Positions 40,389 to 54,874 of a stretch of 64,000 nucleotides of DNA are shown one piece after another. Source of the DNA: Polyangiales bacterium. Lineage in GTDB: Bacteria > Myxococcota_A > Polyangia > Polyangiales > JBDIVX01. The position numbers and the translations under genes are program-made. Every line of letters begins with the position of its first letter. Position 1 is the stretch's first letter. The notes under the pieces are model-generated. The model saw nothing but the letters and a program-made list of their open reading frames with translations. It had not been told where the DNA came from and did no database searches. The stretch covers positions 48,606-112,605 of the forward strand of contig JBDIVX010000003.1 in NCBI GenBank assembly GCA_039794305.1, in the 5' to 3' direction.

Positions 40389-40751
40389 ATGCCCGTCGAG
40401 ACGTTCCGGCCCGAGGATCGCGTCCGCAGACGGTCCGAGTATCGGGCGGTCCAGTCGCGTGGCAGCCGCGTGCACACCCCTCACTTCCTCGTCCTCGTCC
40501 TCCCGAAGCCCGGCCAAGAGCGCACCCGGCTCGGGGTCACCGTCACCAAGAAGGTCAGCTCCTCCGCCGTGGGCCGTAACCGCGTCAAACGCGTCGTGCG
40601 CGAAGTCTTCCGACGCAACCGGGATCTGTTCCCGGCGCGCTGCGACGTGGTGGTGATCGCGAAGCGCGGTGCGCCCGAGCTCGGCTACGGGGAGGTCCTC
40701 GGTGAGATGACCGAGGCGGCACGTCCGATGCAACGGAAGGCGGCACGATGA
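40389..40751 (+). CDS. rnpA: ribonuclease P protein component
   Basis: ..[26 protein letters not shown]......[27 protein letters not shown].. immediately after rpmH. Confidence 0.9.
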
Positions 40752-40987
40752 AGCGCGTGCTGCTCTTCCTCATCCGCATCTACTGGTGGACGCTGTCGCC
40801 GATCATCGGCCGCGTGTGCAGGTTCGAGCCGTCGTGCTCCCGGTACACGGCCACGTGCATCGAGCGCTTCGGGGCTTTGAGAGGCAGTTGGCTCGGCGCC
40901 AAGCGCATCTGCCGATGCCACCCCTTCCACCCGGGTGGGTACGACCCTCCGCCGGAGCTGACCGATGGAGTCGCAGGGACCCGATAG
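40748..40987 (+). CDS. yidD: membrane protein insertion efficiency factor YidD
   Basis: ..[60 protein letters not shown]. 4-nt overlap with rnpA. Confidence 0.9.
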
Positions 40988-42785
40988 GCGACAGCTCATC
41001 CTGCTGCTGGTGGTGAGCGTGCTCTTCGCCGGCGGCTACATGGCCTACGCGGCGATGACGGCGCCCGAGGGCGGCGAGGAGCCCGCACGCCCGGCGCAGC
41101 GAGCGCAGGGGCCCCGTGAGGGTGCGGGCGAGAGCGCGCAGGGCGCCGAGACCACCGACAACCGGCAGCTCCTCTCACGGCAAGAGACCGTGACGCTCGA
41201 GGGGAACGGCTTCCAGGCGACGGCGAGCAACCTGAACACGGGGCTCACGAGCCTCGAGCTCACCACCGAACAGTGGGCGGAGGAGGACGGGACCCCGAAG
41301 CAGATGGTCACGACCGACAAGCCGCCCTACTACCCGCTGCGGGCGGAGCTCGGCGGGGTCGGAATCCCCGACGACGCGGTGTGGGAGATCGAGCGGGACG
41401 GTGAGGGCGCCGTCCGCTTCACGTGGGAGGGCAACGGCTTCCGCGTCGAGCGGGAGTACGAGGCGGGAGACGGCCAGTACGAGCTCTGGTCGACGGTCCG
41501 GGTGACCAACACGAGCCGCGCCGAGCGGCCGGTGCGCGTGCGGCTCAAGACGTACCACTACGTCGAGCGGGAGGACGAGGAGGGCGGCTTCTTCGCGTCG
41601 CGCTCTCCGGCGATCAGCCACGGCATCTGCGTGTGGAACGACGAGGTCGAGCGCGTCGACCGCGAAGACGCGCTCGCCGGCCGCGGCTTCGGACCCGGCG
41701 TGAAGCTCGCCGGCATCGAGAACCAGTACTTCGCGAACGTCGTAGCCGTGGAGGGCGAGCCGGCGGAGCGCTGCACCCTCCGCTCGTCCGACCGCGGGGG
41801 CTCCGAAGAAGACCCGCACGGGAGCCTGTTCGAGACGACGCTGGTCTACCCGCGCGCGTCGGTCGCGGCGGGCGAGACCTACGCGGTGAGGGCCCTCGCC
41901 TACCTCGGGCCCAAGGACACCGAGGCGCTCGCCGCCGCGGGGCACGGGCTATCGGTCGTCGTCGACCGCGGCTGGTTCTCGGCCGTGGCCGAGTGGCTGG
42001 TGGCGCTCCTCGGTCTCATCCAGGGGTTCGTCGGCAACTGGGGGCTGGCCATCATCCTGATGACGGTCCTCGTACGCATCGCGCTCTTCCCGCTCACGTG
42101 GAAGAGCTTCCAGTCGATGGCGCGGATGCGGGTCCTCAAGCCCGAGATGGACCGTGTCAACCAGCTCTACAAGGACGACCCCCAGAAGAAGGGGGCCGCC
42201 ATCATGGAGCTCTACCGGAAGCACAAGATCAGCCCGCTGGGCGGGTGCTTGCCGATGGTGCTCCAGATGCCGATCTGGTTCGCGTTCTACGCGAGCCTGT
42301 CGACCAACACCGAGCTGTACCACGCGAACTTCGCGCTCTGGTACACGGACCTGTCCGCACCCGATCCCTACTTCGTGCTGCCCATCACCGTCGGGGCGCT
42401 GATGTTCGTGCAGCAGAAGATCACGCCGACCGCGATGGACGCGACCCAGGCGAAGATCATGATGTACTTCATGCCCATCATGATCACGTCGTTCCTGCTG
42501 TTCCTGCCGGCGGGCCTGTGCCTGTACATGGTCACGAACAGCGTGCTCGGGATCAGCCAGCAGCAGTGGATCCACCGGAGCCTCGAGAGACGCCAGAAGG
42601 AGCTCGAGAAGAAGCCGGAGGCGGACGGCGCGCCCGGAGCGGGCGGTGAGGACCAAGGTGACACCGAGGGCGACTCGGCCGAGAGCGAGGAGGAGTCCCG
42701 CTCCGGCAGCGTCGTCAGCGTGAGGCGGCCCAAGCAGACGAAGTCGCGCAAGGCCGCGAAGCGGAGGACCCGACGTGCCCGATGA
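40965..42785 (+). CDS. yidC: membrane protein insertase YidC
   Basis: 606 aa with a large periplasmic N-domain and the conserved core [30 protein letters not shown]....YKDD..K......ELY....I.P.GGCLP...Q.PI..A.Y. Confidence 0.9.
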
Positions 42786-43380
42786 TGACAAGCCCTTGAG
42801 GGATGGCGCCCTGTTCGTGGCGGAGGACGCCGGCTACGACGACGAGGATCGCGCCGAGAGCGCCGGCAAGCCGGGCGCCCCGGGCGACGGCAAGGCCGAG
42901 CAGGCGGCGGACATCCTCGACGGCATCCTCGCCCGCATGGACCTCGACACCGAGGTGACGGTGCGCGAGGACGAAGAGAAGATCGTGCTCGATGTGGACG
43001 GACCGGACGCGGGCCGAGCGATCGGGCGCAAAGGCCAGACGCTCGACGCGCTCCAGTTCCTCGTGAACAAGATCGTCAACCGCTTCCCGGACGGCCGCCG
43101 GCACGTCATCGTCGACTCGGGCGACTACCGCGAGCGGCACGACAAGGGCCTCGTCTCCATGGCGCGGCGCCAGGCGAAGAAGGCCGTGCAGCAGGGCAAG
43201 GTCATCACGCTCGAGCCGATGAGCGCGCGCGACCGCCGCGTCATCCACCTCTCGCTCGCGAAGTTCCCGGGCGTGACGACGAAGTCGGACGGTCACGGCC
43301 TCGGCCGGCGGATCCAGATCATCCCGGCCCGCCAGGGCCGCGGGCGCCCCTCGCGCCACCGGCGTCGCGAAGATTACTAG
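42775..43380 (+). CDS. jag: Jag/KhpB-like RNA-binding protein (KH + R3H)
   Basis: GTG start overlapping the yidC end. ..GRAIGRKGQTLDALQFLVNKIV.. (KH-like) and ..LEPMSARDRRVIHLSL.. (R3H). Confidence 0.85.
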   Translation: MPDDDKPLRDGALFVAEDAGYDDEDRAESAGKPGAPGDGKAEQAADILDGILARMDLDTEVTVREDEEKIVLDVDGPDAGRAIGRKGQTLDALQFLVNKIVNRFPDGRRHVIVDSGDYRERHDKGLVSMARRQAKKAVQQGKVITLEPMSARDRRVIHLSLAKFPGVTTKSDGHGLGRRIQIIPARQGRGRPSRHRRREDY

Positions 43381-43440
43381 TACCCCCGGTCGGCGCACCA
43401 CGCGCACGGAGGGTAGCGCGCCCGGCCCGGCTCGGGACCG

Positions 43441-44157
43441 TTACGGAGCGAGGATCGGGATGCGAAGCTCGAAGCGCGCCCCGCCCTCCGGGCGGTTCGA
43501 CGCCGAGACACGGCCGCCGTGCGCGCGGACGATCTCGCGGACGATGGCGAGCCCCAGGCCCATCCCGCCCTCACCCCTGCGGACGAAGGGATCGAACACC
43601 AGGGGTCGCAGGGTCTCGGTCAGCCCCGGACCGTCGTCGTCCACGATGATCGCGGCGTGCCCCTCGCCGTCGGCGCGCATCTCGACCCACACGGTGCTGC
43701 AGGCGTGCTTCAGCGCGTTGCCGAGGACGTTGCTGAAGGCGCGGCCGATGCGGGGCGCGTCCACGCGCGCGCGGACTTCGGGCATCGGCTCGACCTCGAT
43801 CTTCTTGTGACGGCCTTCGGTCGTGACCCGCACCTCCTCGAGCACCAGGAGGAGGACCTTCGAGAGGTCTTCTTCTCGCATGTCGAGCTCGAGGCTGCCC
43901 CGACCGGCGGCGCCGAGCTCCGACAGCTCGCTCGCGAGCAAGCGCAGGCGCTCGCCGCTCCGGCGGACGAGCTCGATCAGGTGGCGCTGGTGGGGATTGA
44001 GCGGGCCCGTCTCGCCGGACTCCAGGAGATCGACGGCGCCGAGCACCGCCATCAGCGGCGCACGCATGTCGTGCGAGATCATCGAGAGGATCTCGGTCGG
44101 GTCCGGGAGCCGGACGCCCCTGAAGATCCCCGAGTCCCGATCGTAGTGCTCGCTCAT
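43441..44157 (-). CDS. cytoplasmic histidine kinase without sensor or TM region (238 aa)
   Basis: Track ORF 43441..44982 trimmed to ATG 44157. The H-box (MISHDMRAPL) begins about 25 aa from the N-terminus. N box NALKH, G1 DDGPG, G2 GGMGLGLAI. ATGA overlap with the upstream activator gene. Confidence 0.85.
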   Translation of the reverse strand: MSEHYDRDSGIFRGVRLPDPTEILSMISHDMRAPLMAVLGAVDLLESGETGPLNPHQRHLIELVRRSGERLRLLASELSELGAAGRGSLELDMREEDLSKVLLLVLEEVRVTTEGRHKKIEVEPMPEVRARVDAPRIGRAFSNVLGNALKHACSTVWVEMRADGEGHAAIIVDDDGPGLTETLRPLVFDPFVRRGEGGMGLGLAIVREIVRAHGGRVSASNRPEGGARFELRIPILAP

Positions 44158-45527
44158 CGCGCCTCGTTCACTTCGTCGTCGGCGAGCCCGAACTTTTCGA
44201 TGCGGTAGCGGATCTGGTTGCGGGTGATGCCGAGCAGGCGGGCCGCACGCGTCCGGTTGCCCCCCGTCCGCTCGAGCGCCTGCCGGAGGAGGCTCTGCTC
44301 GAGGGCGTCGAGGGCGACGCCACCCGGCGGGAGCGCAAACGACCCCGCGGCGCCGCGCGTGCCCGCGAGCCGGGGGAAGTCCGAGACGTCGAGGACCTCC
44401 CGATCGCCGACGATGGCCGCACGCAACAGGAGGTTCTCGAGCTCGCGGACGTTGCCGGGCCAGCCGTGCGAGGCGAACCGCCGCAGCGACTCGTCGCTGA
44501 CGCTCCTCGCTCGCGTACCGAGCCTCGCGCGGAAGCGGCGCAGGAAGTGCTCGACCAGGATCGGGACGTCCTCCAGGCGGGCGCGCAGCGGCGGCAGCTC
44601 GACGGTGAGCACGGCCAGGCGGTAGTACAGGTCCTGGCGGAACCTGCCCGCGACCACCGCCTGATCGAGGTCGACGTTCGTGGCCGCGACGACCCGTACG
44701 TCGGCGACCCGATCGGTCATGCCGCCCACGCGGCGGAAGGTCCGCGATTCGAGGAACCGGAGCAGCTTCGCCTGCACGCGCAGATCGAGGTCCCCCACCT
44801 CGTCGAGGAAGGCCGTCCCCCGGTCGGCGCTCTCGAGCAAACCCTGCTTCCGGGCCACCGCATCGGTGAAGGCTCCGCGCTCGTGCCCGAAGAGCTCGCT
44901 CTCGATCAGATCGGACGGGAGCGCCGTGCACATCAGGTGAACGAAGGGCTCCTCGGCGCGGACGCTCAGTCGGTGGATGCAACGCGCGGCGAGGTCCTTC
45001 CCCGTGCCGCTCTCACCCGTGAGCAGGACGGTGCTCGCGGGGCTGCGTGCGACGCGGCGCAGGAGCTCCCGGAGCTGCACCGCCGCAGCCGACTCGCCGA
45101 CGAGCTCCGACAGCGCGTCGGCGCCGTGCTCGGCCGCGGACAAGCGCGTCGCGTCGCGCGCGGCGAGCGCCTCGGACACGACCACCAACAGGTCGCGCAT
45201 CTCGAGCGACTTGGGGATGCAGTGGAACGCACCGAGACGCATCGCCTCGACCGCCATCGCGACGTTCGGCGACTCGGTGAGCACGACGACCGGCACGTCC
45301 GGCTCGCGCCGGCGCGTCTCACCGAGCAGCTCGAGCCCCCGACCGTCCTCCACGGCCGAGCCGAGCAGCACGAGGTCCACGCCGCGGTCGAGCTCGGCGC
45401 ACGCCTGTCGCGTGTCCGCCACATCACGCACGACGTAGCCTGCATGCTCGAGGTGCGCGTGCAGCGACCACCGGACGAGCCGGTCGTCGTCCACGACGAG
45501 CACCCGAGGCCTCGCCTGTTCCCCCAT
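44154..45527 (-). CDS. NtrC-family sigma-54-dependent transcriptional activator (receiver-AAA+-Fis HTH) with atypical receiver
   Basis: Track ORF 44154..46079 trimmed to ATG 45527. Walker A GESGTGKD, ESELFGHERGAFTDA, RVVAATN, C-terminal HTH GNRTRAARLLGITRNQIRYRI. The receiver has DDD, T and K but reads DLVLLG where DLVLLD is expected. Confidence 0.9.
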   Translation of the reverse strand: MGEQARPRVLVVDDDRLVRWSLHAHLEHAGYVVRDVADTRQACAELDRGVDLVLLGSAVEDGRGLELLGETRRREPDVPVVVLTESPNVAMAVEAMRLGAFHCIPKSLEMRDLLVVVSEALAARDATRLSAAEHGADALSELVGESAAAVQLRELLRRVARSPASTVLLTGESGTGKDLAARCIHRLSVRAEEPFVHLMCTALPSDLIESELFGHERGAFTDAVARKQGLLESADRGTAFLDEVGDLDLRVQAKLLRFLESRTFRRVGGMTDRVADVRVVAATNVDLDQAVVAGRFRQDLYYRLAVLTVELPPLRARLEDVPILVEHFLRRFRARLGTRARSVSDESLRRFASHGWPGNVRELENLLLRAAIVGDREVLDVSDFPRLAGTRGAAGSFALPPGGVALDALEQSLLRQALERTGGNRTRAARLLGITRNQIRYRIEKFGLADDEVNEAR

Positions 45528-45657
45528 CACGGTCCCCCCGAAGCCAAAGCATGGAGCATGCCCGCCCGTCGCGCCATGGATCCGTCGAATTACCCACCAA
45601 GCACGGCCCGAGCGGCCGGTGGAAATGGCGCGACGGGTGGCTGGTCCACGAGCCGGC

Positions 45658-46296
45658 TCAGCGGTGCTGCCGAGAGAACCCCGTGATCCGCCTCGGAGCC
45701 CCGCTCGACGGAAGCCGGTACTCGATCGAGGGCTCCCGCGCGGCTCCCGGGGGCGCCGATGGGGGGTCCTGGGCCGTGAGCACCAGGACCCGCGGGGCGA
45801 GCGCGAGCCCGACGCGGAGCCACTCGTCGGGTGCGAGCGTCGCGCGAGAGAGCGCAACGTCGAACGGGCCGCCCGGGACGGTGGGCCGCGCGGGGTCCAC
45901 CTTCGCCTCGGCGACACGCGCGCGCGCCGCGAGGTCGAGGCCGCCGACGGCCGTCCGGAGGAACGCGACGCGCTTGCGCAACGGCTCGACGAGGACGCCG
46001 GTGAGGTCGGGCCTGAGGAGCAGGAGCGGGACGGCGGGTGCGCCGGCGCCCGTCCCCACGTCCACGAAGCGCGCGCCATCCGGCACGAGCGAACGGTCCG
46101 CGAGCACGAGCGCGTCCGCGAACAGCACCTCCCCGAGCGCCTCCGGCGTGCGGGCGGCGGTGAGGTTCATGCGGGCGTTCCACGTCCGCACGAGCTCGGC
46201 GAACGCGACCAGCCGGTCGCGGGCATCGGGTGGGACGGGTCGCCCGAGATCCCGGGCGAGGGAGTCGACGATGGCCTGCACGGCGCACGGGAGCAT
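45658..46296 (-). CDS. rsmG: 16S rRNA (guanine527-N7)-methyltransferase RsmG (GidB)
   Basis: Track ORF 45658..47049 trimmed to ATG 46296: ..LVAFAELVRTWNARMNLTA....EALGEVLFADAL......VDVGTGAGAPAVPL.. Confidence 0.85.
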   Translation of the reverse strand: MLPCAVQAIVDSLARDLGRPVPPDARDRLVAFAELVRTWNARMNLTAARTPEALGEVLFADALVLADRSLVPDGARFVDVGTGAGAPAVPLLLLRPDLTGVLVEPLRKRVAFLRTAVGGLDLAARARVAEAKVDPARPTVPGGPFDVALSRATLAPDEWLRVGLALAPRVLVLTAQDPPSAPPGAAREPSIEYRLPSSGAPRRITGFSRQHR

Positions 46297-46308: not shown

Positions 46309-46821
46309 ATGGGTAGGAAGGAGACGAGCGCGGGCCTGCTCATGTGCCGCATGGGCGAGGGCGGCCCCGAGGTGCTCCTCGTGCACCCCGGCGGCCCGTT
46401 CTTCGCGAAGAGGGACGACGGCGCGTGGACCATCCCGAAGGGGCTCGTCGACACGGACGAGGACCTCCTGGCGGCGGCCCGCCGCGAGTTCGAGGAGGAG
46501 ACGGGGTTCCGGGTCGAAGCGACACGGTTCGTGCCGCTCGGCGAGGTGCGGCAGAGGAGCGGCAAGGTGGTGCACGCGTGGGCGTTCGCGGGCGACGCGG
46601 ATCCCGCCGCGGTCGAGAGCAACACGTTCGAGCACGAGTGGCCGCCGCGGTCGGGGCGTTTTCGGACGTTCCCCGAGATCGATCGCGCGGCGTTCTTCGA
46701 TGGTGAGACGGCGGGACGGAAGATCCTCGCGGCGCAGCGGCCCTTCGTCGAGCGCGCGCTCTCGAGCGAGGGCCTGAGGGATCTGCTGGGCTCGGCGTTT
46801 CGCCGAACGTCCCGGGAATAG
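46309..46821 (+). CDS. NUDIX hydrolase
   Basis: In-frame ATG 46309. Nudix box GLVDTDEDLLAAARREFEEETGF. Only 12 nt from the divergent rsmG start. Confidence 0.85.
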   Translation: MGRKETSAGLLMCRMGEGGPEVLLVHPGGPFFAKRDDGAWTIPKGLVDTDEDLLAAARREFEEETGFRVEATRFVPLGEVRQRSGKVVHAWAFAGDADPAAVESNTFEHEWPPRSGRFRTFPEIDRAAFFDGETAGRKILAAQRPFVERALSSEGLRDLLGSAFRRTSRE

Positions 46822-46945: not shown

Positions 46946-47144
46946 CTAATTTTCTGCAGACGTCGCGAGCACGCCTTCGGCGTCTCGCGATTCTGCACCC
47001 CACGCCCCTTCGGGGCGCGGGGCCCATTGTCTGCAGACGTCGCGAGCACGCCTTCGGCGTCTCGCGATTCTGCACCCCACGCCCCTTCGGGGCGCGGGGC
47101 CCATTGTCTGCAGACGTCGCGAGCACGCCTTCGGCGTCTCGCGA
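46946..47144 (+). repeat. 77-bp intergenic tandem repeat, 2.5 copies; the two full copies are 100% identical and each forms two strong hairpins
   Basis: ctgcagacgtcgcgagcacgccttcggcgtctcgcgattctgcaccccacgccccttcggggcgcggggcccattgt at 46954-47030 and 47031-47107, with the first 37 nt again at 47108-47144. Hairpin 1: tcgcgag..acgcc-ttc-ggcgt..ctcgcga. Hairpin 2: ccccacgcccc-ttc-ggggcgcgggg. Confidence 0.9.
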
Positions 47145-47260
47145 ACGCTGCAAGTGCGTGGAATCACGGAAGGGGGCCGAGCGGCGGCACGACGCGGCTC
47201 CCAGGATGCGGGGGGGTTGCCGCCGGTGGGTTCACGAGTAGACTGGCCAGCCGGATCCGC

Positions 47261-47656
47261 ATGCGCTCCCCCTCGATCGTGGCGGCTGCCCTGTTGGGCT
47301 CGCTGTTGGTGCCGGCTTCGGCGCTGGCGCAGGGGCGCGTGTGCATGGTCGTCAGCGAGCCGGCGTTCGTCGAGTCGCTCGATCTCGTGGAGGCGACCGC
47401 GAAGGTCGGGACGCAGCGCGAGGCCCGGGACGAGGGTGTCGTGCTGTGGTGCGCGAGCGCCGACGACCCTCGCTGCGCCCCCGTGCGCAACGACGAGCAG
47501 CCCCAGACCGACTGGCTCCGCGGACCGCAGAAGTCCGGCGGGCCCGATCCCGACGACGTCGCGGCACCCGCCGCGACCGAAGTGCAGTTCGTTTCCGATC
47601 CGACGGGCCCGTCGCGTGGCGTCCGTCATCGGGTCGAGAGGCCACCTCGCGCGTGA
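47261..47656 (+). CDS. small secreted protein (131 aa, 3 Cys), function unknown
   Basis: In-frame ATG 47261 within track ORF 46847..47656: MRSPSIVAAALLGSLLVPASALAQG (signal peptide). No motif recognised. Confidence 0.55.
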   Translation: MRSPSIVAAALLGSLLVPASALAQGRVCMVVSEPAFVESLDLVEATAKVGTQREARDEGVVLWCASADDPRCAPVRNDEQPQTDWLRGPQKSGGPDPDDVAAPAATEVQFVSDPTGPSRGVRHRVERPPRA

Positions 47657-47773
47657 CGGCGTGCCCGGCTCCGGCCGGGTGACGTCGTCTCCGAGCATTC
47701 CTGGTCCTTTCGATCCGTGGTTTTCAACCATGCGCCGGGGCGTGTCCGCGCCGGTGCATCGAGGTGAGTTGGT

Positions 47774-49816
47774 ATGAGTAAGGGTTCTGCAATCATTTCG
47801 ATCCTGATCGCATTCGTGGGCGGTCTCCTCATCGGGCAGCTGACCGCGACCGGCGGCGGGTCCGCCGGGGAGGAAGAAGAAGTCGCCGAGGTCGGCTCGG
47901 CCGAAGGCGACGCCCGAGGCGCGACGGCAGCCGGCGACGTCGAGCGGTTCAACGTCCCGGTCACCGAGGACCAGCCCGTGAAGGGCCCCGCCGACGCGCT
48001 CGTCACCATCGTCGAGTGGAGCGACTTCGAGTGCCCGTTCTGCACGCGCGTGGAGCCGACGATCACGCAAATCATGGACGAGTACGAGGGCAAGGTGCGC
48101 GTCGTGTGGCGGAACAACCCGCTGCCGATGCACCGCAACGCCCCGGCCGCCCACCAGGCCGCGATGGAGGCCTTCGACCAGGGCGGGAGCGAGAAGTTCT
48201 GGCGGATGCACGGGATCCTCTTCGAGAACCAGCGCGCCCTCCAGCGCGCCGATCTCGAGCGGTACGCCCAGCAGCTCGGCCTGAACATGGACCAGTTCAA
48301 GGCCGCGCTCGACAACAACGAGCACGCGTCGAAGATCGAGGCGGACCAGACGCTCGCCAACGAGGTGGGCGCGCGCGGGACGCCGCACTTCTTCATCAAC
48401 GGCCGCCGCATCGCCGGCGCGCAGCCCTTCGAGCAGTTCAAGACCATCATCGACGACGAGATCCAGCGCGCCGAGCAGATGCTCGCGGCCGGAGTGGATC
48501 GTCGCGCCGTCTACGCCTCGTTCATGCGCGCCGCGCGCGAGCGGGGAGGCGACGACGCGCAGCCGGCCGCCGCGGCGCAGGAGCAGGCTCGGCCGCAGCC
48601 GGATCCGAACGCCGTCTACCGCGTCCCCGTGGGCAACGAGCCGTCGAAGGGCCCGGCGGACGCGCTCGTCACGATCGTCGAGTTCAGCGACTACGAGTGC
48701 CCCTTCTGCAGCCGCGTCGAGCCGACCATCGACCAGATCGTCGAGCGCTACGGAAACGACGTGCGCGTGGTGTGGATGAACAACCCGCTGCCCTTCCACC
48801 AGAACGCCATGCCGGCGCACCAGGCGGCGCTCGAGGTGTACCAGCAGGGCGGGAACGCGAAGTTCTGGCGCTACCACGCCAAGCTCTTCGAGAACCAGCG
48901 CGCGCTCACCCGCGAGAACCTCGAGCAGTGGGCGCAGGAGCTCGGCGGGATCAACATGGCGCAGTTCCGCGCCGCGCTCGACAACAACGAGCACCAGGAG
49001 GCGATCCAGCAGCAGCAGGCGCTCGCCCGTGGCCTCGGCGCGAGCGGCACGCCCAGCTTCTTCATCAACGGCCGCAACCTGCGAGGTGCCCAGCCGCTGC
49101 CCGCCTTCACCGCGGTCATCGACGAGGAGCTCCGCAAGGCGCGGGCGAAGGTCGAGGGCGGGACGCCGCGCGCGCGCGTCTACGAGGAGACCATCCGCAA
49201 CGGTGCGACCTCGCCGCAGACGATCAACGCGCCGGCACCCGCCGCCCAGCCCGAGCCTCCGGCCCAGCCGCCGGCCGACCAGCAGTACGAGATCGCGGTG
49301 CCGAACGACGCCCCGACCAAGGGCGGCCGCAACGCGCCGGTCACCATCCAGATCTTCAGCGACTTCGAGTGCCCCTTCTGCGGCCGCGTCAACCCGACCG
49401 TGCAGCAGATCGAGCGCGAGTATGGCAACCGCGTGAAGATCGTCTGGCGCAACTACCCGCTGCCGTTCCACCAGAACGCCATGCCCGCGGCCGAGGCTTC
49501 CTGGGAGGTGTTCCAGCAGGGCGGCGCGGCGAAGTTCTGGGCCTACCACGACATCCTGTTCCAGAACCAGCGCGCCCTGTCGCGTGAGGACCTCGAGCGC
49601 TACGCGCAGCAGGTGGGCGGGATCAACATGGCCCAGTTCCGGCAGGCGCTCGACACCAACCGGCACCGCGCGCGCGTCCAGCAGGACATGAACGCGGTGC
49701 AGGAGGCCGGCGCACGCATCGGCACGCCGAGCTTCTTCATCAACGGACGCCTGGTCCAGGGCGCGCAGCCCTTCGAGGCCTTCAAGGCCCAGATCGACCG
49801 CGCCCTCGCAGACTGA
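47774..49816 (+). CDS. membrane-anchored protein with three tandem DsbA-family thioredoxin modules (3x CPFC)
   Basis: ATG 47774 with gaggtgag RBS. N-terminal TM IISILIAFVGGLLIGQL. Three modules about 55-60% identical by eye, each with FSD(F/Y)ECPFC (CPFC codons at 48032, 48698, 49370), NPLP(M/F)H, FW..H..LF.NQ and the cis-Pro loop GTP.FFING. Confidence 0.9.
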   Translation: MSKGSAIISILIAFVGGLLIGQLTATGGGSAGEEEEVAEVGSAEGDARGATAAGDVERFNVPVTEDQPVKGPADALVTIVEWSDFECPFCTRVEPTITQIMDEYEGKVRVVWRNNPLPMHRNAPAAHQAAMEAFDQGGSEKFWRMHGILFENQRALQRADLERYAQQLGLNMDQFKAALDNNEHASKIEADQTLANEVGARGTPHFFINGRRIAGAQPFEQFKTIIDDEIQRAEQMLAAGVDRRAVYASFMRAARERGGDDAQPAAAAQEQARPQPDPNAVYRVPVGNEPSKGPADALVTIVEFSDYECPFCSRVEPTIDQIVERYGNDVRVVWMNNPLPFHQNAMPAHQAALEVYQQGGNAKFWRYHAKLFENQRALTRENLEQWAQELGGINMAQFRAALDNNEHQEAIQQQQALARGLGASGTPSFFINGRNLRGAQPLPAFTAVIDEELRKARAKVEGGTPRARVYEETIRNGATSPQTINAPAPAAQPEPPAQPPADQQYEIAVPNDAPTKGGRNAPVTIQIFSDFECPFCGRVNPTVQQIEREYGNRVKIVWRNYPLPFHQNAMPAAEASWEVFQQGGAAKFWAYHDILFQNQRALSREDLERYAQQVGGINMAQFRQALDTNRHRARVQQDMNAVQEAGARIGTPSFFINGRLVQGAQPFEAFKAQIDRALAD

Positions 49817-49836
49817 CGCGTCAGCGAGCGAGACGG

Positions 49837-49870
49837 AAAGGGCCGGGGCGCATGCCTCGGCCCTTTTCGT
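49837..49870 (+). terminator. Rho-independent terminator after the first triple-DsbA gene
   Basis: aaagggccg-N12-cggcccttt (9-bp perfect stem) running into ttttcgtt. One of the very few T-tract hairpins in the window; 21 nt after the stop at 49816. Confidence 0.6.
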
Positions 49871-49873
49871 TGG

Positions 49874-49889
49874 TGGGATGCGAGTTGCA
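49874..49889 (+). promoter_or_regulatory. candidate sigma-54 promoter (distal)
   Basis: TGGgAtGcgagTTGCA: GG and GC exactly 12 nt apart with a perfect -12 TTGCA. Overlaps the left arm of hairpin motif copy 2; 63 nt upstream of the ATG at 49952. Confidence 0.3.
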
Positions 49890-49914
49890 TTCGGACCTGT
49901 CCCCAATGCAACTG
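49882..49914 (+). repeat. 33-nt conserved hairpin motif, copy 2
   Basis: gagttgcattcggacctgtccccaatgcaactg, with 27/33 identity to copy 1. The core ggacctgtcccc is identical. Stem position 3/31 changes c-g to g-c (compensatory). Confidence 0.6.
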
Positions 49915-49922
49915 CCTGGCTC

Positions 49923-49938
49923 TGGCACGCCGAGTGCG
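49923..49938 (+). promoter_or_regulatory. candidate sigma-54 promoter (proximal)
   Basis: TGGCACGccgagTGCg: perfect -24 TGGCACG, with GC 12 nt after GG. The predicted start site would fall only 2-4 nt before the ATG at 49952 (near-leaderless), which weakens the call. Confidence 0.3.
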
Positions 49939-49951
49939 TGCGCCCTGATCG

Positions 49952-50407
49952 ATGCAGGCGTTCGTCGACTCTCTCACCTGGGCCACGTTCGTGGTGCTCG
50001 CGGCCGCGCTCTTCGTGATCGGGGGGGGAGTCCACGCGATCCGCCAGACGGTTCGCCAGCCGACGTACGAGACGGCCATCGCGTACGGCGCCGGGGGTCT
50101 GTTCGCCACGCTGTTCCTGCTCGCGGTCGGGCAGGCGGCGTACGTGCTCGGGATGTGGACAGCGAACCTCGAGATCGCAGCGGCGCCCGTGGCCCTGCGC
50201 CCCGAGATGCTGCAGCAGGCGGAGCTCGAAGCGCGATCGAGCCTGTACGTCGCCGTCGCCGGGGCCGCGGTCGCCCTGCCCATGGCCGTGTACCTCTTCG
50301 TGCGGGCCCTGCGGCTCCGCGGTCACGCACGCGAACGCGCGCCCGAACGCGAGCGGCCGTACGACCGCTGGCAGCCCCACGGCCGCCGCGACGCCGACGC
50401 GCACTAG
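49952..50407 (+). CDS. small integral membrane protein (3 predicted TM, no Cys), function unknown
   Basis: 151 aa. Hydrophobic segments LTWATFVVLAAALFVIGGGV, AIAYGAGGLFATLFLLAVGQAAYVLGMW and LYVAVAGAAVALPMAVYLFV, followed by a basic tail. Confidence 0.65.
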   Translation: MQAFVDSLTWATFVVLAAALFVIGGGVHAIRQTVRQPTYETAIAYGAGGLFATLFLLAVGQAAYVLGMWTANLEIAAAPVALRPEMLQQAELEARSSLYVAVAGAAVALPMAVYLFVRALRLRGHARERAPERERPYDRWQPHGRRDADAH

Positions 50408-50456
50408 ACGCATCGACGCATCGACAAGTCGTCAGGGTCGTCTACAGTTGCGGCCC

Positions 50457-52547
50457 ATGAGGCGCGTCGCCACGATGCTCCTGGCCTCCCTGTGGGTCGC
50501 GTGCAGCGCTCCACCGGGCGCGCGGCCCGCCCCGACCGCGACGAGCGACCTGCCGCGCCGGCTCGACGATGCGCGGTTTTCCGCAGCGGCCGTACAGGGC
50601 CTCGCGGCGGACCGAGGGGTCGCCGCGTACGCGGGACGGTGGCCGACCGACGGCCTGCCGGGCGCCGACGAGCGGCGGGTCCACGTGCCCGCCGACGGGG
50701 CGCCGGCGCGGGGTGCGGCCGAGCCTCTCGTGACGATCGTGGTGTTCAGCGACTTCGAGTGCCCGTTCTGCAGCCGCCTGAACCCGACGCTCGGTCGCCT
50801 GCTCGAGTCGCACCCGGACGACGTGCGCGTGGTGTTCCGGCAGTTCCCTCTCCCCATGCACCGCCACGCCGAGGACGCCGCGGAGGCCGCGCTCGAGGCG
50901 TTCGCGCAGCGGGGCGACGCCGGGTTCTGGGAGATGCACGACCTCATCTTCGCGAACCAGCGCGCCCTCGAGCGGCCCGACCTCGAGAGGTACGCGCAAG
51001 GGGCAGGCCTCGACGTGCACCGGTTCGCACGCGCGCTCGACGAGGGGGCGTACGAGGCCGCCGTCGACGCGGACGTGGCGATGGGCCGGCAGGCCGGCGT
51101 GCGAGGGACGCCGGCCTTCTTCCTGAACGGGCGCGTCCTCGTCGGGGCGCAGCCCTTCGAGCTCGTGGACGCCGTCGTGCGCGAGGAGATCGCGCTCGCG
51201 CGGGCGGCGATGGACGCCGGCGTGCCGCGCCACCACCTCTACGCGGCGGCGATGGCGGCCGTGAGCCGAACGGCGGCCGTGGACCGAGCACGCGCGGCCC
51301 CGCGGGAGCCGCCCCGACCGGAGCCGCCCCGCCGGCCCGAGCGGCGCGAGCCCCCGGAGGACACGGTCTACCACGTCCCCATCGAGGGCTCGCCTGCGCG
51401 CGGGCCACGCACGGCGCTCGTGACGATCGTCGAGCTCGGCGACGTCGAGTGCCCGTTCTGCGAGCGCGTGCAGGGCACGCTGTCCGAGCTGCGGGAGCGA
51501 TACGGAAGCGACCTCCGCATCGTCTGGAAGCACAACCCGCTTCCCTTCCACTCGAACGCCTTGCCCGCCGCGATGGCGCTCGAGGAGGCCCGCGCGCAGC
51601 GGGGCGAGCGCGCCTTCTGGCGCATGCACGACCTCCTGTTCGAGAACCGCTCGGAGCTCGATCGGGAGCACCTCGAGGAGTACGCGCGTGCGGTCGGCCT
51701 GAACGTGCGGCGTTTCCGCCGCGCCCTCGACGAAGAGCGTCACCGCGACGTGATCGAGCGGGACGTGGCCCTGGCCCGCCGGCTCGGCGCCACCGGCACG
51801 CCCACCTTCTTCGTGAACGGCGTCAAGCTCCGGGGCGCTCAGCCGCTCGAGCGCTTCGTCGAGCGGGTCGACGAGCGGCTCGCCGACGCACGGGCGCGCC
51901 TGGCACGGGGCACGCGCCGGCAGGACCTGTACGAGGCGGTGATCGCGGACGGCCTGGCCGACGTCGAGAGCTGGCGCGAGGGACAGCGACGCCCCGTCGC
52001 GATCTCGGTACCCGAGGGCGCCCCGTGGCGTGGAGCCCGTGACGGCGTCGTGACGATCCAGGTGTTCAGCGACTTCGAGTGCCCGTTCTGCGCCCGCGTG
52101 CGGCCCACCGTCGAGCGGTTGCTCGACGAGTACCCGAGCCAGGTGCGGCTCGTCTGGCGCAACCTGCCGCTGCCGATGCACGACCACGCAGAGCTCGCGG
52201 CGGAGGCCGCCATGGAGGTCTACGCGCAGGGTGGGAACGACGCCTTCTGGGCCTTCCACGACCTCCTGTTCGACCATCAGCGGGCGCTGAGCCCGGACGA
52301 CCTCGAAGGGTACGCCGAGCAGCTCGGCGCGCTCGACATGGTGCGGTTCCGCGAGGCGCTGCGCGACCACCGCCACCGTGGCGCCATCGAGGCGGACGTG
52401 GAGGCGGCCCGCGCGACGGGCGAGGGCCTCGGGACGCCGGCCTTCCTGATCGGCGGTCGCGTCGTCCAGGGCGCGCAGCCCTACGAGGTGTTTCGGGATG
52501 CCGTCGAGCGTGCGCTCGAGCCGGACGGCAACGCAGACGGCGGATGA
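50457..52547 (+). CDS. lipoprotein with three tandem DsbA-family thioredoxin modules (3x CPFC), paralog of 47774..49816
   Basis: ATG 50457 (the track starts at TTG 50448): MRRVATMLLASLWVACS (lipobox). CPFC codons at 50760, 51450 and 52080. Same module signature (FSDFECPFC / LGDVECPFC, NPLPFH, FW..HDLLF.N, GTP.FF.NG). Confidence 0.9.
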   Translation: MRRVATMLLASLWVACSAPPGARPAPTATSDLPRRLDDARFSAAAVQGLAADRGVAAYAGRWPTDGLPGADERRVHVPADGAPARGAAEPLVTIVVFSDFECPFCSRLNPTLGRLLESHPDDVRVVFRQFPLPMHRHAEDAAEAALEAFAQRGDAGFWEMHDLIFANQRALERPDLERYAQGAGLDVHRFARALDEGAYEAAVDADVAMGRQAGVRGTPAFFLNGRVLVGAQPFELVDAVVREEIALARAAMDAGVPRHHLYAAAMAAVSRTAAVDRARAAPREPPRPEPPRRPERREPPEDTVYHVPIEGSPARGPRTALVTIVELGDVECPFCERVQGTLSELRERYGSDLRIVWKHNPLPFHSNALPAAMALEEARAQRGERAFWRMHDLLFENRSELDREHLEEYARAVGLNVRRFRRALDEERHRDVIERDVALARRLGATGTPTFFVNGVKLRGAQPLERFVERVDERLADARARLARGTRRQDLYEAVIADGLADVESWREGQRRPVAISVPEGAPWRGARDGVVTIQVFSDFECPFCARVRPTVERLLDEYPSQVRLVWRNLPLPMHDHAELAAEAAMEVYAQGGNDAFWAFHDLLFDHQRALSPDDLEGYAEQLGALDMVRFREALRDHRHRGAIEADVEAARATGEGLGTPAFLIGGRVVQGAQPYEVFRDAVERALEPDGNADGG

Positions 52548-52641: not shown

Positions 52642-53532
52642 ATGGCGACCAAGGCAAGGGCGGCGGAGAAGCCGCCGATCGTCGAAGAGCTGCATTTCCG
52701 AAGCGATAGCGCCTTCCTCTGCCTTCTCTTGAACCACCGGACCAAGTTCGTCCGGGTCATCGACTTCCGCGCGGGTGCGCTGCCGGCCAAGCGGCTGTTC
52801 ATCCAGTCGGTGGCCAAGCGCGAGGGCGTGCAGAAGGTCATCACGCTCGTCGAGAAGGACGAGGTCTCGAGCTGGACCCGGGTCGGGTTCGTCCGCGAGG
52901 GGACGATCCCCGGCTTCTACAAGCGGAGCGACGGTCACCTGTGCGGGTGCGTCATCGGCGACAAGACCGCGAGCGTCGAGGTGACCGACGAGGGCATGAA
53001 GCTCGCGGAGCGCACGATCAACGCGGCCAAGAAGAATGCCAAGGACATCCCCGACAAGGTGAAGGGCGTGTCGATCCACGAGGTCGAGGCCTCGGAGGCC
53101 GAGGCGGCGCGCGACGCGGCCGTCAAGAAGGGCACCGCCGTCAACACCTTCGACCCGTTCGGACGGGACGCCGAGCGCTTCTACTTCGACTGCGCGACGC
53201 GCCGCGGCAAGCCCAACTACATCGCGGCGGAATATCAGGACTGCTTCGGTCACTCGCTGATCGAGACCCTCCGCAGCCCGGCCTCCGACAACGAGGTGCT
53301 CGCGCTCACCGAGGGGCTCCGCGCGATATGCGCGGAGCTGAAGGACCGCGGGATCATCAGCGCCTTCGGGTTCGCGGCGAGCGACGACGTGCAGCTCGGT
53401 ACGGCATACACGGCGGCGGGCTTCCGCAAGACCGGCCTGCTCGCCCAGGCCGTGTCGGCCGGCGGCGAGCGCAAGGACGCGATCCTCTGGACGCAGAAGC
53501 TCGCGAACCCGGGCTCGGACGACGAGGGCTGA
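52642..53532 (+). CDS. two-lobed GNAT-like (acetyltransferase-fold) protein
   Basis: 296 aa. Both halves end in GNAT-like strands (..VQKVITLVEKDEVSSWTRVGFVREGTIPGFY.. and ..AFGFAASDDVQLGTAYTAAGFRKTGLL...DAILWTQKL). I could not identify a clear acetyl-CoA Q/RxxGxG/A motif. Confidence 0.6.
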   Translation: MATKARAAEKPPIVEELHFRSDSAFLCLLLNHRTKFVRVIDFRAGALPAKRLFIQSVAKREGVQKVITLVEKDEVSSWTRVGFVREGTIPGFYKRSDGHLCGCVIGDKTASVEVTDEGMKLAERTINAAKKNAKDIPDKVKGVSIHEVEASEAEAARDAAVKKGTAVNTFDPFGRDAERFYFDCATRRGKPNYIAAEYQDCFGHSLIETLRSPASDNEVLALTEGLRAICAELKDRGIISAFGFAASDDVQLGTAYTAAGFRKTGLLAQAVSAGGERKDAILWTQKLANPGSDDEG

Positions 53533-53672: not shown

Positions 53673-54062
53673 ATGCGAACACGAGAAGACATCGAATCCT
53701 ATCTGATGCGGTCCGGCCTCCGGTACGAGGAGGTCGAGGAGGACATGTGGGTCGTCCACGACCAGGCCAGCACCGAGAACATCGTGGTGCGCATGGCCGG
53801 GCCGCTGGTCCTGTTCCGCGTGAAGGTGCTGGAGCTCGCCACCGTCGAGCGGCGCTCCGAGCTGTTCGAGAAGCTGCTGGAGCTCAACGCGGAGGACATG
53901 GTGCACGGTGCCTATGGTATCGCGAACGACGCCATCGTCCTCACGTGCGCGCTGCGCCTCGAGAACCTCGACTACAGTGAGTTTCAGGGCACCATCGACG
54001 ATTTCTCCCTGGCGCTGACGAATCACTACGAAACGCTGGCGAGCTTCCGGGACGCGGCGTAG
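53673..54062 (+). CDS. YbjN-like small cytoplasmic protein
   Basis: 129 aa: ..IESYLMRSGLRYEEVEEDMWVV...LLELNAEDMVHGAYGIANDAIVLTCALRLENLDYSEFQGTIDDF.. matches my recollection of the YbjN/T3SS-chaperone-like family. 14 nt upstream of pspA. Confidence 0.6.
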   Translation: MRTREDIESYLMRSGLRYEEVEEDMWVVHDQASTENIVVRMAGPLVLFRVKVLELATVERRSELFEKLLELNAEDMVHGAYGIANDAIVLTCALRLENLDYSEFQGTIDDFSLALTNHYETLASFRDAA

Positions 54063-54076
54063 GAATTGGGGGAGAC

Positions 54077-54874
54077 ATGGGTTTCTTCGGCCGGCTCGCG
54101 CAGCTCATCAAGAGCAACCTGAACGACCTGATCAACCGGGCGGAAGACCCGGAGAAGATGCTCAATCAGGTCATCCTCGACATGAACACGCAGCTCGTCG
54201 AGGCGAAGAAGCAGGTTGCAGTCGCCATCGCGGACGAGAAGAAGCTGCAGAAGCAGCACAACAACGAGGCCAGCGTCGCCGAGGAGTGGGAGCGGAAGGC
54301 CATGATGGCGATCCGCGCCGGCGACGACGCGCTCGCGAAGGAGGCGCTGCTCCGCAAGAAGGAGCACGACGCGCTCGCGGTGCAGTACAAGGAGCAGTGG
54401 GAGAAGCAACGCGTCGCGGTCGACTCGCTCAAGACCGCCCTGCGCGCCCTGAACAACAAGATCGAGGAGGCGAAGCGCAAGAAGAACGTGCTCATCGCAC
54501 GCAAGCGCCGCGCCGAGGCGATGAAGAGCATCCAGGAGACCATGAGCGGTCTCTCGGACACGAGCGCGTTCGAGACGTTCGACCGGATGGCCCAGAAGAT
54601 CGACCAGATCGAGGCCGAGGCGGAGGCGGGCGCGGAGATCGCCGAGGAGTACACGGGCGACGTCCTCAAGCACAAGTTCCAGCAGCTCGAGGCGACGGCC
54701 GGCGCCGACGCGGACCTCGAGGACCTCAAGCGCAAGATGGGCATCCTCCCGGCCGCGGAGGAGGCGCCGGCGGTCGCGGCGCGCGTCGAGGCGGAGGCCA
54801 CCGAGGAAGAGGTCGAGATGGCCGAGCTCGAGGCGGCCCTCGAGGAGCTGAAGCGGCGCGAAGCCGGGGGATGA
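54077..54874 (+). CDS. pspA: PspA/IM30 family protein
   Basis: MGFFGRLAQLIKSNLNDLINRAEDPEKMLNQVILDMNTQLVEAKKQVAVAIADEKKLQ... is a canonical PspA/Vipp1 N-terminus and coiled coil. Confidence 0.9.
   Translation: MGFFGRLAQLIKSNLNDLINRAEDPEKMLNQVILDMNTQLVEAKKQVAVAIADEKKLQKQHNNEASVAEEWERKAMMAIRAGDDALAKEALLRKKEHDALAVQYKEQWEKQRVAVDSLKTALRALNNKIEEAKRKKNVLIARKRRAEAMKSIQETMSGLSDTSAFETFDRMAQKIDQIEAEAEAGAEIAEEYTGDVLKHKFQQLEATAGADADLEDLKRKMGILPAAEEAPAVAARVEAEATEEEVEMAELEAALEELKRREAGG

Follow-up and report, generated by a model that had tools for sequence, protein, structure and literature searches.

How should we read a bacterial locus in which two neighbouring genes each encode three DsbA-type thiol:disulfide oxidoreductase domains in a single chain? 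The question is raised by a stretch of 64,000 nucleotides of a Polyangiales bacterium (assembly GCA_039794305.1, contig JBDIVX010000003.1, positions 48,606 to 112,605 of the forward strand), with a base composition of about 72% G+C; this whole stretch is called the window in what follows, and coordinates are counted from its first letter unless a related locus is named. The two genes, here termed A and B, were singled out in an initial annotation made from the DNA letters, which implied that such triple chains are rare. We found instead that the A/B locus is nothing out of the ordinary within a large Myxococcota family, annotated in the databases and experimentally unstudied. As for what the proteins do, we give a probability of roughly 0.7 to the reading in which both are multivalent thiol:disulfide oxidoreductases that face the periplasm, are tethered to a membrane and serve the oxidative folding of exported proteins.

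The proteins themselves will be examined first. Gene A (47774..49816, on the + strand like all the features of A and B given here) encodes 680 amino acids, and gene B (50448..52547) encodes 699 when it is read from a TTG codon at 50448; an ATG at 50457 is the start behind the gene B coordinates of the initial annotation. Both proteins give three separate matches to PF13462 (Thioredoxin_4) and PF01323 (DSBA), with whole-protein E-values of 1.7e-80 for A and 3.7e-69 for B and PF13462 bit scores of 269 and 233 against a curated cut-off of 23.2; matches to PF00085 are only marginal. In A, module 1 occupies 47945..48481 (envelope of the hidden Markov model match; CPFC codons 48032..48043, loop GTPHFFING), module 2 occupies 48614..49150 (CPFC codons 48698..48709, loop GTPSFFING) and module 3 occupies 49283..49813 (CPFC codons 49370..49381, IGTPSFFING), the last with a one-residue insertion that is also present in module 3 of B. 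A linker rich in Pro, Ala and Gln (about 48539..48601) precedes module 2, and another, rich in Pro and Ala (about 49208..49279), precedes module 3. The modules of B lie at 50676..51209 (CPFC codons 50760..50771), at 51366..51899 (CPFC codons 51450..51461, with a Pro/Arg/Glu-rich linker ahead) and at 51993..52535 (CPFC codons 52080..52091, loop GTPAFLIGG). The A protein has exactly six cysteines, all of them in the CPFC motifs at residues 87, 309 and 533, and the B protein has its CPFC motifs at residues 105, 335 and 545, plus Cys19 (codon 50502..50504) in a lipobox-like LWVAC. The view that each gene consists of three complete DsbA-family modules is thus borne out by the three profile matches and the intact CPFC of each.

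The motifs were said to be kept in every module, and this is true of their cores: ECPFC, PLPxH and GTPxF are found in six of six. It is not true of their longer forms, since FSDFECPFC and NPLPxH are exact in only three modules each and GTPxFFxNG in five, the departure being module 3 of B. A G-T-P stands at the expected position of the cis-Pro loop in all six modules, its cis conformation being predicted from sequence only. In the databases, an identical copy of the A protein is present at NCBI (P0001). NCBIfam NF041057, the Rcas_1661 (seleno)lipoprotein family, gives 295 and 251 against a cut-off of 190, scores which sum the three module matches to a single-domain model of 247 amino acids; that family is one of single-domain lipoproteins, whereas A and B have three modules and A is not a lipoprotein.

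The predicted structure agrees with this division into modules. The AlphaFold2 model of A, built on an alignment of 45 sequences, has a mean pLDDT (predicted local distance difference test) of 88.5 and a pTM (predicted template modelling score) of 0.46. It contains three domains with a pLDDT above 90 (residues ~55-255, 277-478 and 503-680), with low-confidence linkers at residues 259-270, where the pLDDT falls below 50, and 491-495. Helices begin at residues 88, 312 and 534, at the CPFC motif, and the order of secondary-structure elements in this predicted structure fits a thioredoxin fold with an inserted helical domain. The model has no confident packing between the domains, and it is this feature that suggests three DsbA folds carried on flexible linkers like beads on a string. 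When compared with solved structures by Foldseek, the domains of A match BdbD and 3GYK with TM-scores of 0.86 and 0.85, normalised to target length, and they also match the Corynebacterium diphtheriae TsdA ('DsbA'), StScsC, PmScsC, CcScsC, WpDsbA1/2 and BcfH, and sequence searches of the PDB agree with these matches. The only multi-domain chain among them is UGGT.

The two proteins differ in how they are predicted to be held, as the initial annotation also had it, A through a transmembrane helix and B as a lipoprotein through Cys19 of its lipobox. The signal-anchor helix of A (47780..47842, residues 3-23, MSKGSAIISILIAFVGGLLIGQL) is a helix in the AlphaFold model, and it is followed by an acidic disordered tether (47843..47935, residues 24 to ~54), residues 17-45 having a pLDDT below 50. 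Even clades of only ~42-45% overall identity keep the N-terminal sequence M-[SN]-[KR]-G-[ST]-A-[IV], and because of this conservation across clades we infer that the N-terminus stays on the protein as an anchor and is not removed as a signal peptide.

How exceptional is such an architecture? When 5.8 billion proteins were searched by word index, 6835 matches were obtained at E <1e-10, and all 120 matches listed are chains of 565-1093 amino acids, in size classes of ~680 (three modules, 61-76% identity), ~870 (four modules) and ~1070-1090 (five modules). The named sources among these 120 are Sandaracinus, Polyangia and Myxococcota, and the only database names they bear are 'thioredoxin domain-containing protein' and 'protein-disulfide isomerase'. 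When a single module was used in an exhaustive HMMER search of 1.84 billion cluster representatives, 2560 matches were found below 1e-30, and the best 150 of these are all multi-module proteins, with 2-6 modules. A scan of one genome per species confirmed at least 580 loci, and the counts of modules and active sites in related loci given here come from the best 80 of them. These 80 are nearly all labelled as Myxococcota or deltaproteobacterial; cultured hosts among them include Archangium gephyra, Corallococcus coralloides, Hyalangium, Vitiosangium and Cystobacter fuscus, and one locus comes from a Bradymonadia metagenome-assembled genome (MAG). Three modules are found in 87 of their 100 DsbA-type open reading frames (ORFs). 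CPFC accounts for 271 and CPYC for 13 of their roughly 290 active sites, and CxxC is kept in ~97% of the modules, so that selection acts on each of the three sites.

Chains of 4, 5 and 6 modules are also present (P0077, P0008, P0220, P0230), and tandem pairs or triplets of paralogues are frequent among the related loci. The longest chain that we saw is an ORF of 1701 amino acids in a deltaproteobacterial MAG (L072, 7583-12686), with eight tandem DsbA modules, one with CPYC and then seven with CPFC. Chains of two to eight DsbA modules are therefore the norm across Myxococcota, and the three-module chain is the rule, so that the implied rarity does not hold. The initial annotation had proposed a survey of domain architectures, and its case would have fallen if such chains had proved both common and already characterised: common they are, characterised they are not. 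Two- and three-domain DsbA-like proteins had been noted before, by Atkinson and Babbitt in 2009 (PMC2757866), at the level of architecture only, without taxonomy, synteny, partner gene or function. Some MAG contigs with a typical Polyangiales-type triple-DsbA locus carry other labels, namely Coxiellaceae (L022, where the Polyangiales synteny is also found), Pseudomonadota (L028 and L073) and Proteobacteria (L058); the taxonomic labels of these bins are probably wrong or too coarse.

The place of gene A in the genome is fixed, and orthologues of A with 55-75% identity keep the synteny. In related loci A follows (rpmH)-rnpA-yidD-yidC-jag, at times with gidB and a NUDIX gene, and then a small secreted ORF. 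On the 3' side of A come zero to two further multi-DsbA genes, an ORF of ~300 amino acids without Pfam match, a CesT/YbjN-like gene, pspA and a Zn-ribbon gene, and uvrD on the opposite strand closes this conserved order. In many Polyangiales genomes the ~300-amino-acid ORF stands directly after A; in the closer relatives of the window, one or two paralogues are inserted there (L002, L003, L005, L029, L033/L081 and L082, the tandem chains of L082 having 3, 3 and 2 modules). Orthologues of the B type are found in L033/L081, L002 and L029. Gene A has both marks of the A type of this family, the MSKGSAI transmembrane anchor and the position after yidC-jag, and its neighbours and those of B are gidB, the NUDIX gene, the small secreted gene, a GNAT-like ORF, the CesT/YbjN-like gene, pspA and uvrD.

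A regularity in anchoring accompanies this gene order, in that the first multi-DsbA gene of a tandem has the conserved transmembrane anchor and most downstream paralogues have a lipobox. Lipoprotein signal peptides were seen on downstream paralogues in L002, L003, L005, L029, L033, L046, L048, L050 and L082; L066 is an exception, with a transmembrane-type N-terminus on both of its tandem genes. The order of a transmembrane-anchored protein first and lipoproteins after it suggests a division of labour by mode of anchoring.

The small secreted gene is considered next. In the window it lies at 47261..47656 (+) and encodes a protein of 131 amino acids, which we call sec131, with a signal peptide, three cysteines and a G+C content at third codon positions (GC3) of 0.87. 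One cysteine is near the mature N-terminus; the loop W-C-x7-C-x-P (LWCASADDPRCAP) is invariant in the family, and an ERPPR motif marks the C-terminus; in many Polyangiales members the mature protein starts with A-D-C-x-C. The protein has no match in Pfam or NCBIfam. With an iterated hidden Markov model, 41 distinct related sequences were found to carry it immediately ahead of A in the same orientation, and the family comprises 97 database clusters, all labelled 'hypothetical'. The pair is also present on the independent contigs L084 and L085, and members, always directly upstream of the transmembrane-anchored triple-DsbA gene, were located at L011 7391-7888, L082 9380-9838, L084 6001-6405, L085 6001-6396 and elsewhere. 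An AlphaFold model of sec131, made with database homologues, is mostly disordered (pLDDT 59.8, pTM 0.22), only the cysteine loop reaching ~70-77. The initial annotation was right that a three-cysteine secreted protein precedes the cluster, and it erred in treating it as incidental: sec131 is a conserved companion gene of the transmembrane-anchored triple-DsbA gene, and its product may act together with A.

Where do the six modules come from? A 27-nucleotide block that encodes FSDFECPFC had been described as almost unchanged in four of them, and recent duplication or gene conversion had been put forward to explain it. In fact every one of the six modules has a copy of the block, which has no further copy in the window, with no mismatch in modules 1 and 3 of B, one in module 3 of A, two in modules 1 and 2 of A and three in module 2 of B. 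This near-identity speaks for recent duplication or ongoing conversion, as does the codon identity of 0.78-0.80 among the intragenic pairs of A, slightly above the expected 0.70-0.72. Against this, the modules share only 44-62% of their amino acids and 60-72% of their nucleotides, and over all columns with the same residue the two modules use one and the same codon 63-80% of the time, near the 62-72% predicted from codon usage. Two independent encodings of FSDFECPFC would be expected to differ at only 2.6 of 27 nucleotides under the codon bias of this genome. The block thus reflects an invariant peptide combined with extreme codon bias, and we reject recent duplication or ongoing conversion as highly improbable.

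The phylogeny of the modules, which had also been called for, points the same way. The best pairs between the two genes are positional (A1-B1 48.6%, A2-B2 54.2%, A3-B3 53.4%), and a neighbour-joining tree built on 87 modules of 29 proteins groups them by position inside every major clade. For the clade of the window, the groups of second and of third modules each hold both types of paralogue, and the A-type and B-type first modules are separate. This clustering by position across genomes argues that the triplication of the module is old. Gene B is the product of a whole-gene duplication of a three-module chain, which took place before the genomes of L033, L002 and L029 diverged: these genomes carry B orthologues, and their A proteins are only 66-75% identical.

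The closest solved relatives of the modules are TsdA, BdbD and ScsC. TsdA of C. diphtheriae ('DsbA', PDB 4PWO/4PWP/7UNN) is the best sequence match in the PDB (E ~5e-20, 30-32% identity), and like the modules of A and B it has the CPFC motif, a Thr-Pro loop (Thr-cisPro in TsdA), a DsbA fold into which a helical part is inserted, and a tether to the membrane, which is predicted for A and B; it differs in that it has a single catalytic domain and is an actinobacterial back-up enzyme, whereas here there are three domains, a housekeeping position and a diderm host. The best structural match to a module is BdbD of Bacillus subtilis (PDB 3EU3, rmsd 2.2 A at the TM-score given above), which also belongs to the Thioredoxin_4 class. 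BdbD is a membrane-anchored oxidase with a CPSC motif. It has a single domain and is encoded beside its DsbB-like partner BdbC, unlike A and B, which have no such partner next to them.

Known proteins with several such domains were also considered. ScsC of Proteus mirabilis and Caulobacter, BcfH of Salmonella and alpha-DsbA2 of Wolbachia present three flexibly connected DsbA-like domains, homologous to the modules of A and B, and the A/B chain would be a single-chain analogue of this class. PmScsC, CcScsC, BcfH and WpDsbA2 are non-covalent trimers, and their isomerase or dual activity has been ascribed to the closeness of three DsbA-like domains (PMC8900818). They assemble through an N-terminal helical trimerisation region, whereas in A the modules are covalently fused behind a transmembrane helix and an acidic tether; because they lack the trimerisation helix, A and B are not trimers of the ScsC type. 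An operon with a ScsB/DsbD-type reductase or copper-resistance genes, as would be expected of the ScsC type, is not seen either, since none of these is among the neighbours of A and B. The resemblance to eukaryotic PDI noted in the initial annotation is reasonable as a functional analogy, since PDI too carries several redox-active thioredoxin-fold domains per chain for oxidative folding. It fails in the detail of the architecture: PDI has an a-b-b'-a' arrangement, in which a and a' are plain thioredoxin domains with CGHC and b and b' bind substrate without being catalytic, while A and B have DsbA/BdbD-class domains with helical inserts, all with a catalytic CPFC motif and with no b domains, and for these reasons they are not members of the PDI family. 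Finally, UGGT, with its N-terminal domains TRXL1-4, is the one chain of solved structure among the Foldseek matches in which several DsbA-like domains stand in tandem; unlike A and B, UGGT is eukaryotic and redox-inactive, with its domains in a rigid ring-like arrangement and fused to a glucosyltransferase.

We can now detail how such a system would work. Protein A would be held in the membrane by its conserved N-terminal helix and acidic flexible tether, B by its N-terminal lipid, and the most likely job of both would be the oxidative folding of exported proteins that contain cysteines. Three active sites on a flexible chain would raise the local concentration of catalyst and allow several substrate cysteines to be handled at once, and they probably confer avidity and some isomerase capacity; in the known non-covalent trimers and in dimeric DsbC, an arrangement of this kind is accompanied by isomerase or by dual oxidase-isomerase activity. 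Gene A would be the core housekeeping copy, placed after rnpA-yidD-yidC-jag(-gidB) and paired with the small secreted CX7C protein, and B an older whole-gene duplicate turned into a lipoprotein. The quinone-linked reoxidant of A and B, or their reductant, would be encoded elsewhere in the genome.

The absence of this redox partner from the locus was already remarked upon in the initial annotation, and it holds: in a crude hydropathy screen of the window, no ORF other than YidC has at least three transmembrane segments together with cysteine pairs. Nor was a gene like those of DsbB, VKOR, MauE or DsbD found in the window by this crude screen or beside the 83 related loci. A Pfam analysis of ten multi-transmembrane neighbours taken from related loci gave ABC-2, MatE, FecCD, VTT, PAP2, MscS and rhomboid, with no DsbB, VKOR, MauE or DsbD; Myxococcota are not mentioned in the VKOR phylogeny paper or in the MauE preprint. 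A lack of linkage is normal for Dsb systems, and dsbA and dsbB are unlinked in Escherichia coli. Since none of the 83 related loci has such a partner and the E. coli genes are unlinked, the missing adjacent reoxidant is uninformative and is no sign of an unusual mechanism.

Several points weigh against the oxidase reading, and besides the missing partner they concern the chemistry and the evidence base. The Thr before the cis-Pro is also typical of the isomerases DsbC, DsbG and ScsC, and the direction of catalysis is therefore not fixed by the motifs, CPFC and Thr-Pro being compatible with an oxidase as well as with an isomerase or reductase direction. The CPFC motif lacks the His of the strongly oxidising CPHC, and it is because of this lack that the authors of the TsdA study suspect that enzyme to be 'not primarily an oxidizer' (PMC9974433). 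The export and the membrane topology of A and B are predicted from features of their sequences only, the low pTM of the AlphaFold model is no proof of flexibility, and the literature on tandem DsbA, Myxococcus DsbA and myxobacterial PDI yielded no functional (biochemical or genetic) study of any family member, the one Myxococcus paper that was checked naming DsbA in its reference list only. These points lead directly to the first of the other explanations, in which A and B are dedicated isomerases or reductases, single-chain equivalents of ScsC and DsbC that a distant DsbD/ScsB/CcdA-type reductase keeps reduced, and not primary oxidases. The motifs of all modules would suit it, the multivalent DsbA-like enzymes studied so far act as isomerases (PMC8900818), and ScsC is among the closest matches in sequence and in structure. 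On the other hand, TsdA is the closest homologue of solved structure, and it sustains oxidative folding in vivo, where it can replace the essential oxidase MdbA (PMC9974433). In addition, the surroundings of the core copy are a housekeeping export cluster and not a stress or copper operon, no DsbD or ScsB gene is adjacent in the 83 loci, and there is no oligomerisation domain at the N-terminus of the kind that protects DsbC from DsbB. We therefore hold this explanation to be unlikely.

The similarity to ScsC and the conserved CesT/YbjN-like and PspA genes downstream could also suggest that the locus is an ScsC-like module of defence against copper or envelope stress, in which these two genes would take part. 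The stress induction of TsdA (PMC9974433) and a gene for the copper-binding MopE upstream in one relative would fit. This is, however, very unlikely, as genes like scsA, scsB or scsD are not present, the copper gene is found in that single locus, and the linkage to pspA is lost in some relatives in which the DsbA gene stays. The tandem domains could, in the last place, act mainly as a redox-independent chaperone or as a sensor of misfolded proteins, in the manner of the four TRXL domains of UGGT. It is true that UGGT is the only solved chain of this kind that Foldseek found and that Pfam gives weak matches to the UGGT-type Thioredoxin_14 and Thioredoxin_15, but the TRXL domains of UGGT have no redox cysteines, and the retention of CxxC in nearly all modules of the family makes this idea barely credible. 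Membrane-tethered oxidative folding thus remains the reading that we prefer.

The other features of the region can be described more briefly. Between A and B lies an ORF of 151 amino acids (49952..50407, +; GC3 0.92) with three predicted transmembrane segments and, as first reported, no cysteine. It has no match in Pfam or NCBIfam and no tblastn match in the 80 related loci, it has one homologue besides itself among the 5.8 billion proteins, and the equivalent gap of the closest relative holds a different, GDPD-like gene on the opposite strand. It is probably a real gene that is specific to the lineage; it was rejected as a conserved partner of A and B, and by conservation it is an orphan rather than a part of the locus. 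Downstream of B, three genes at 52642-53532, 53673-54062 and 54077-54874 encode a protein of 296 amino acids, a CesT_Tir_1/YbjN-like protein and PspA/IM30, and this trio is kept in most relatives. The 296-amino-acid protein is cytoplasmic and without Pfam match; PDB and NCBIfam searches gave nothing beyond a weak similarity to GNAT_ablB (39 bits against a cut-off of 205).

Just upstream of the locus (40748-46296) are yidD-yidC-jag (KhpB), a histidine kinase gene with that of a sigma-54 NtrC-type regulator, and gidB/rsmG. This set of genes is often found near the replication origin; over the whole window the cumulative GC skew shows a steady rise and does not turn. An array of 2.5 tandem copies of a 77-nucleotide unit occupies 46949-47179 (+), in the intergenic stretch that separates the NUDIX gene (46309..46821) from sec131, the further copies being 99% and 69% identical to the first. 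Each full unit contains two G+C-rich hairpins closed by CUUCGG loops, and the predicted RNA fold of the array has an energy of -143.8 kcal/mol, with a z-score of -9.35 against shuffled sequences. A 37-nucleotide core of the repeat is present in three copies, and the rest of the window has none. The array is absent from the 83 related loci and matches no Rfam family, the only match being below threshold and at chance level. It may consist of terminators stacked behind the upstream gene, serve sec131 and A as a leader or regulatory RNA, or be a local expansion of a repeat.

What does this mean for the family? Oxidative folding in bacteria is understood mainly from the single-domain DsbA and the dimeric DsbC, to which non-covalent trimers have lately been added. 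Myxobacteria have very large exported proteomes rich in cysteines, and they apparently rely on fused chains of three to eight active DsbA domains. The covalent three-module chain could be the solution of the Myxococcota to oxidative folding, joining a DsbA oxidase and a DsbC isomerase in one tethered polypeptide with sec131 as its dedicated partner, for example as a redox relay, a regulator or a pilot substrate, and with the transmembrane-anchored and the lipoprotein paralogues perhaps serving the inner- and the outer-membrane face of the periplasm; we put this forward as a rather doubtful, speculative idea, which, if true, would give these bacteria a partner without counterpart in the known Dsb systems. 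The value of the present locus lies in pointing to this family and to the conserved sec131 gene, and not in any feature unique to it, so that what remains of interest is the family as a whole, the order of transmembrane-anchored and lipoprotein paralogues, and the conserved companion, predicted to be disordered, with its CX7C and ERPPR motifs. The multi-module chains would, if studied, offer a natural single-chain system in which to test how multivalency shifts the DsbA fold between oxidase and isomerase, and they are possible folding catalysts for biotechnology.

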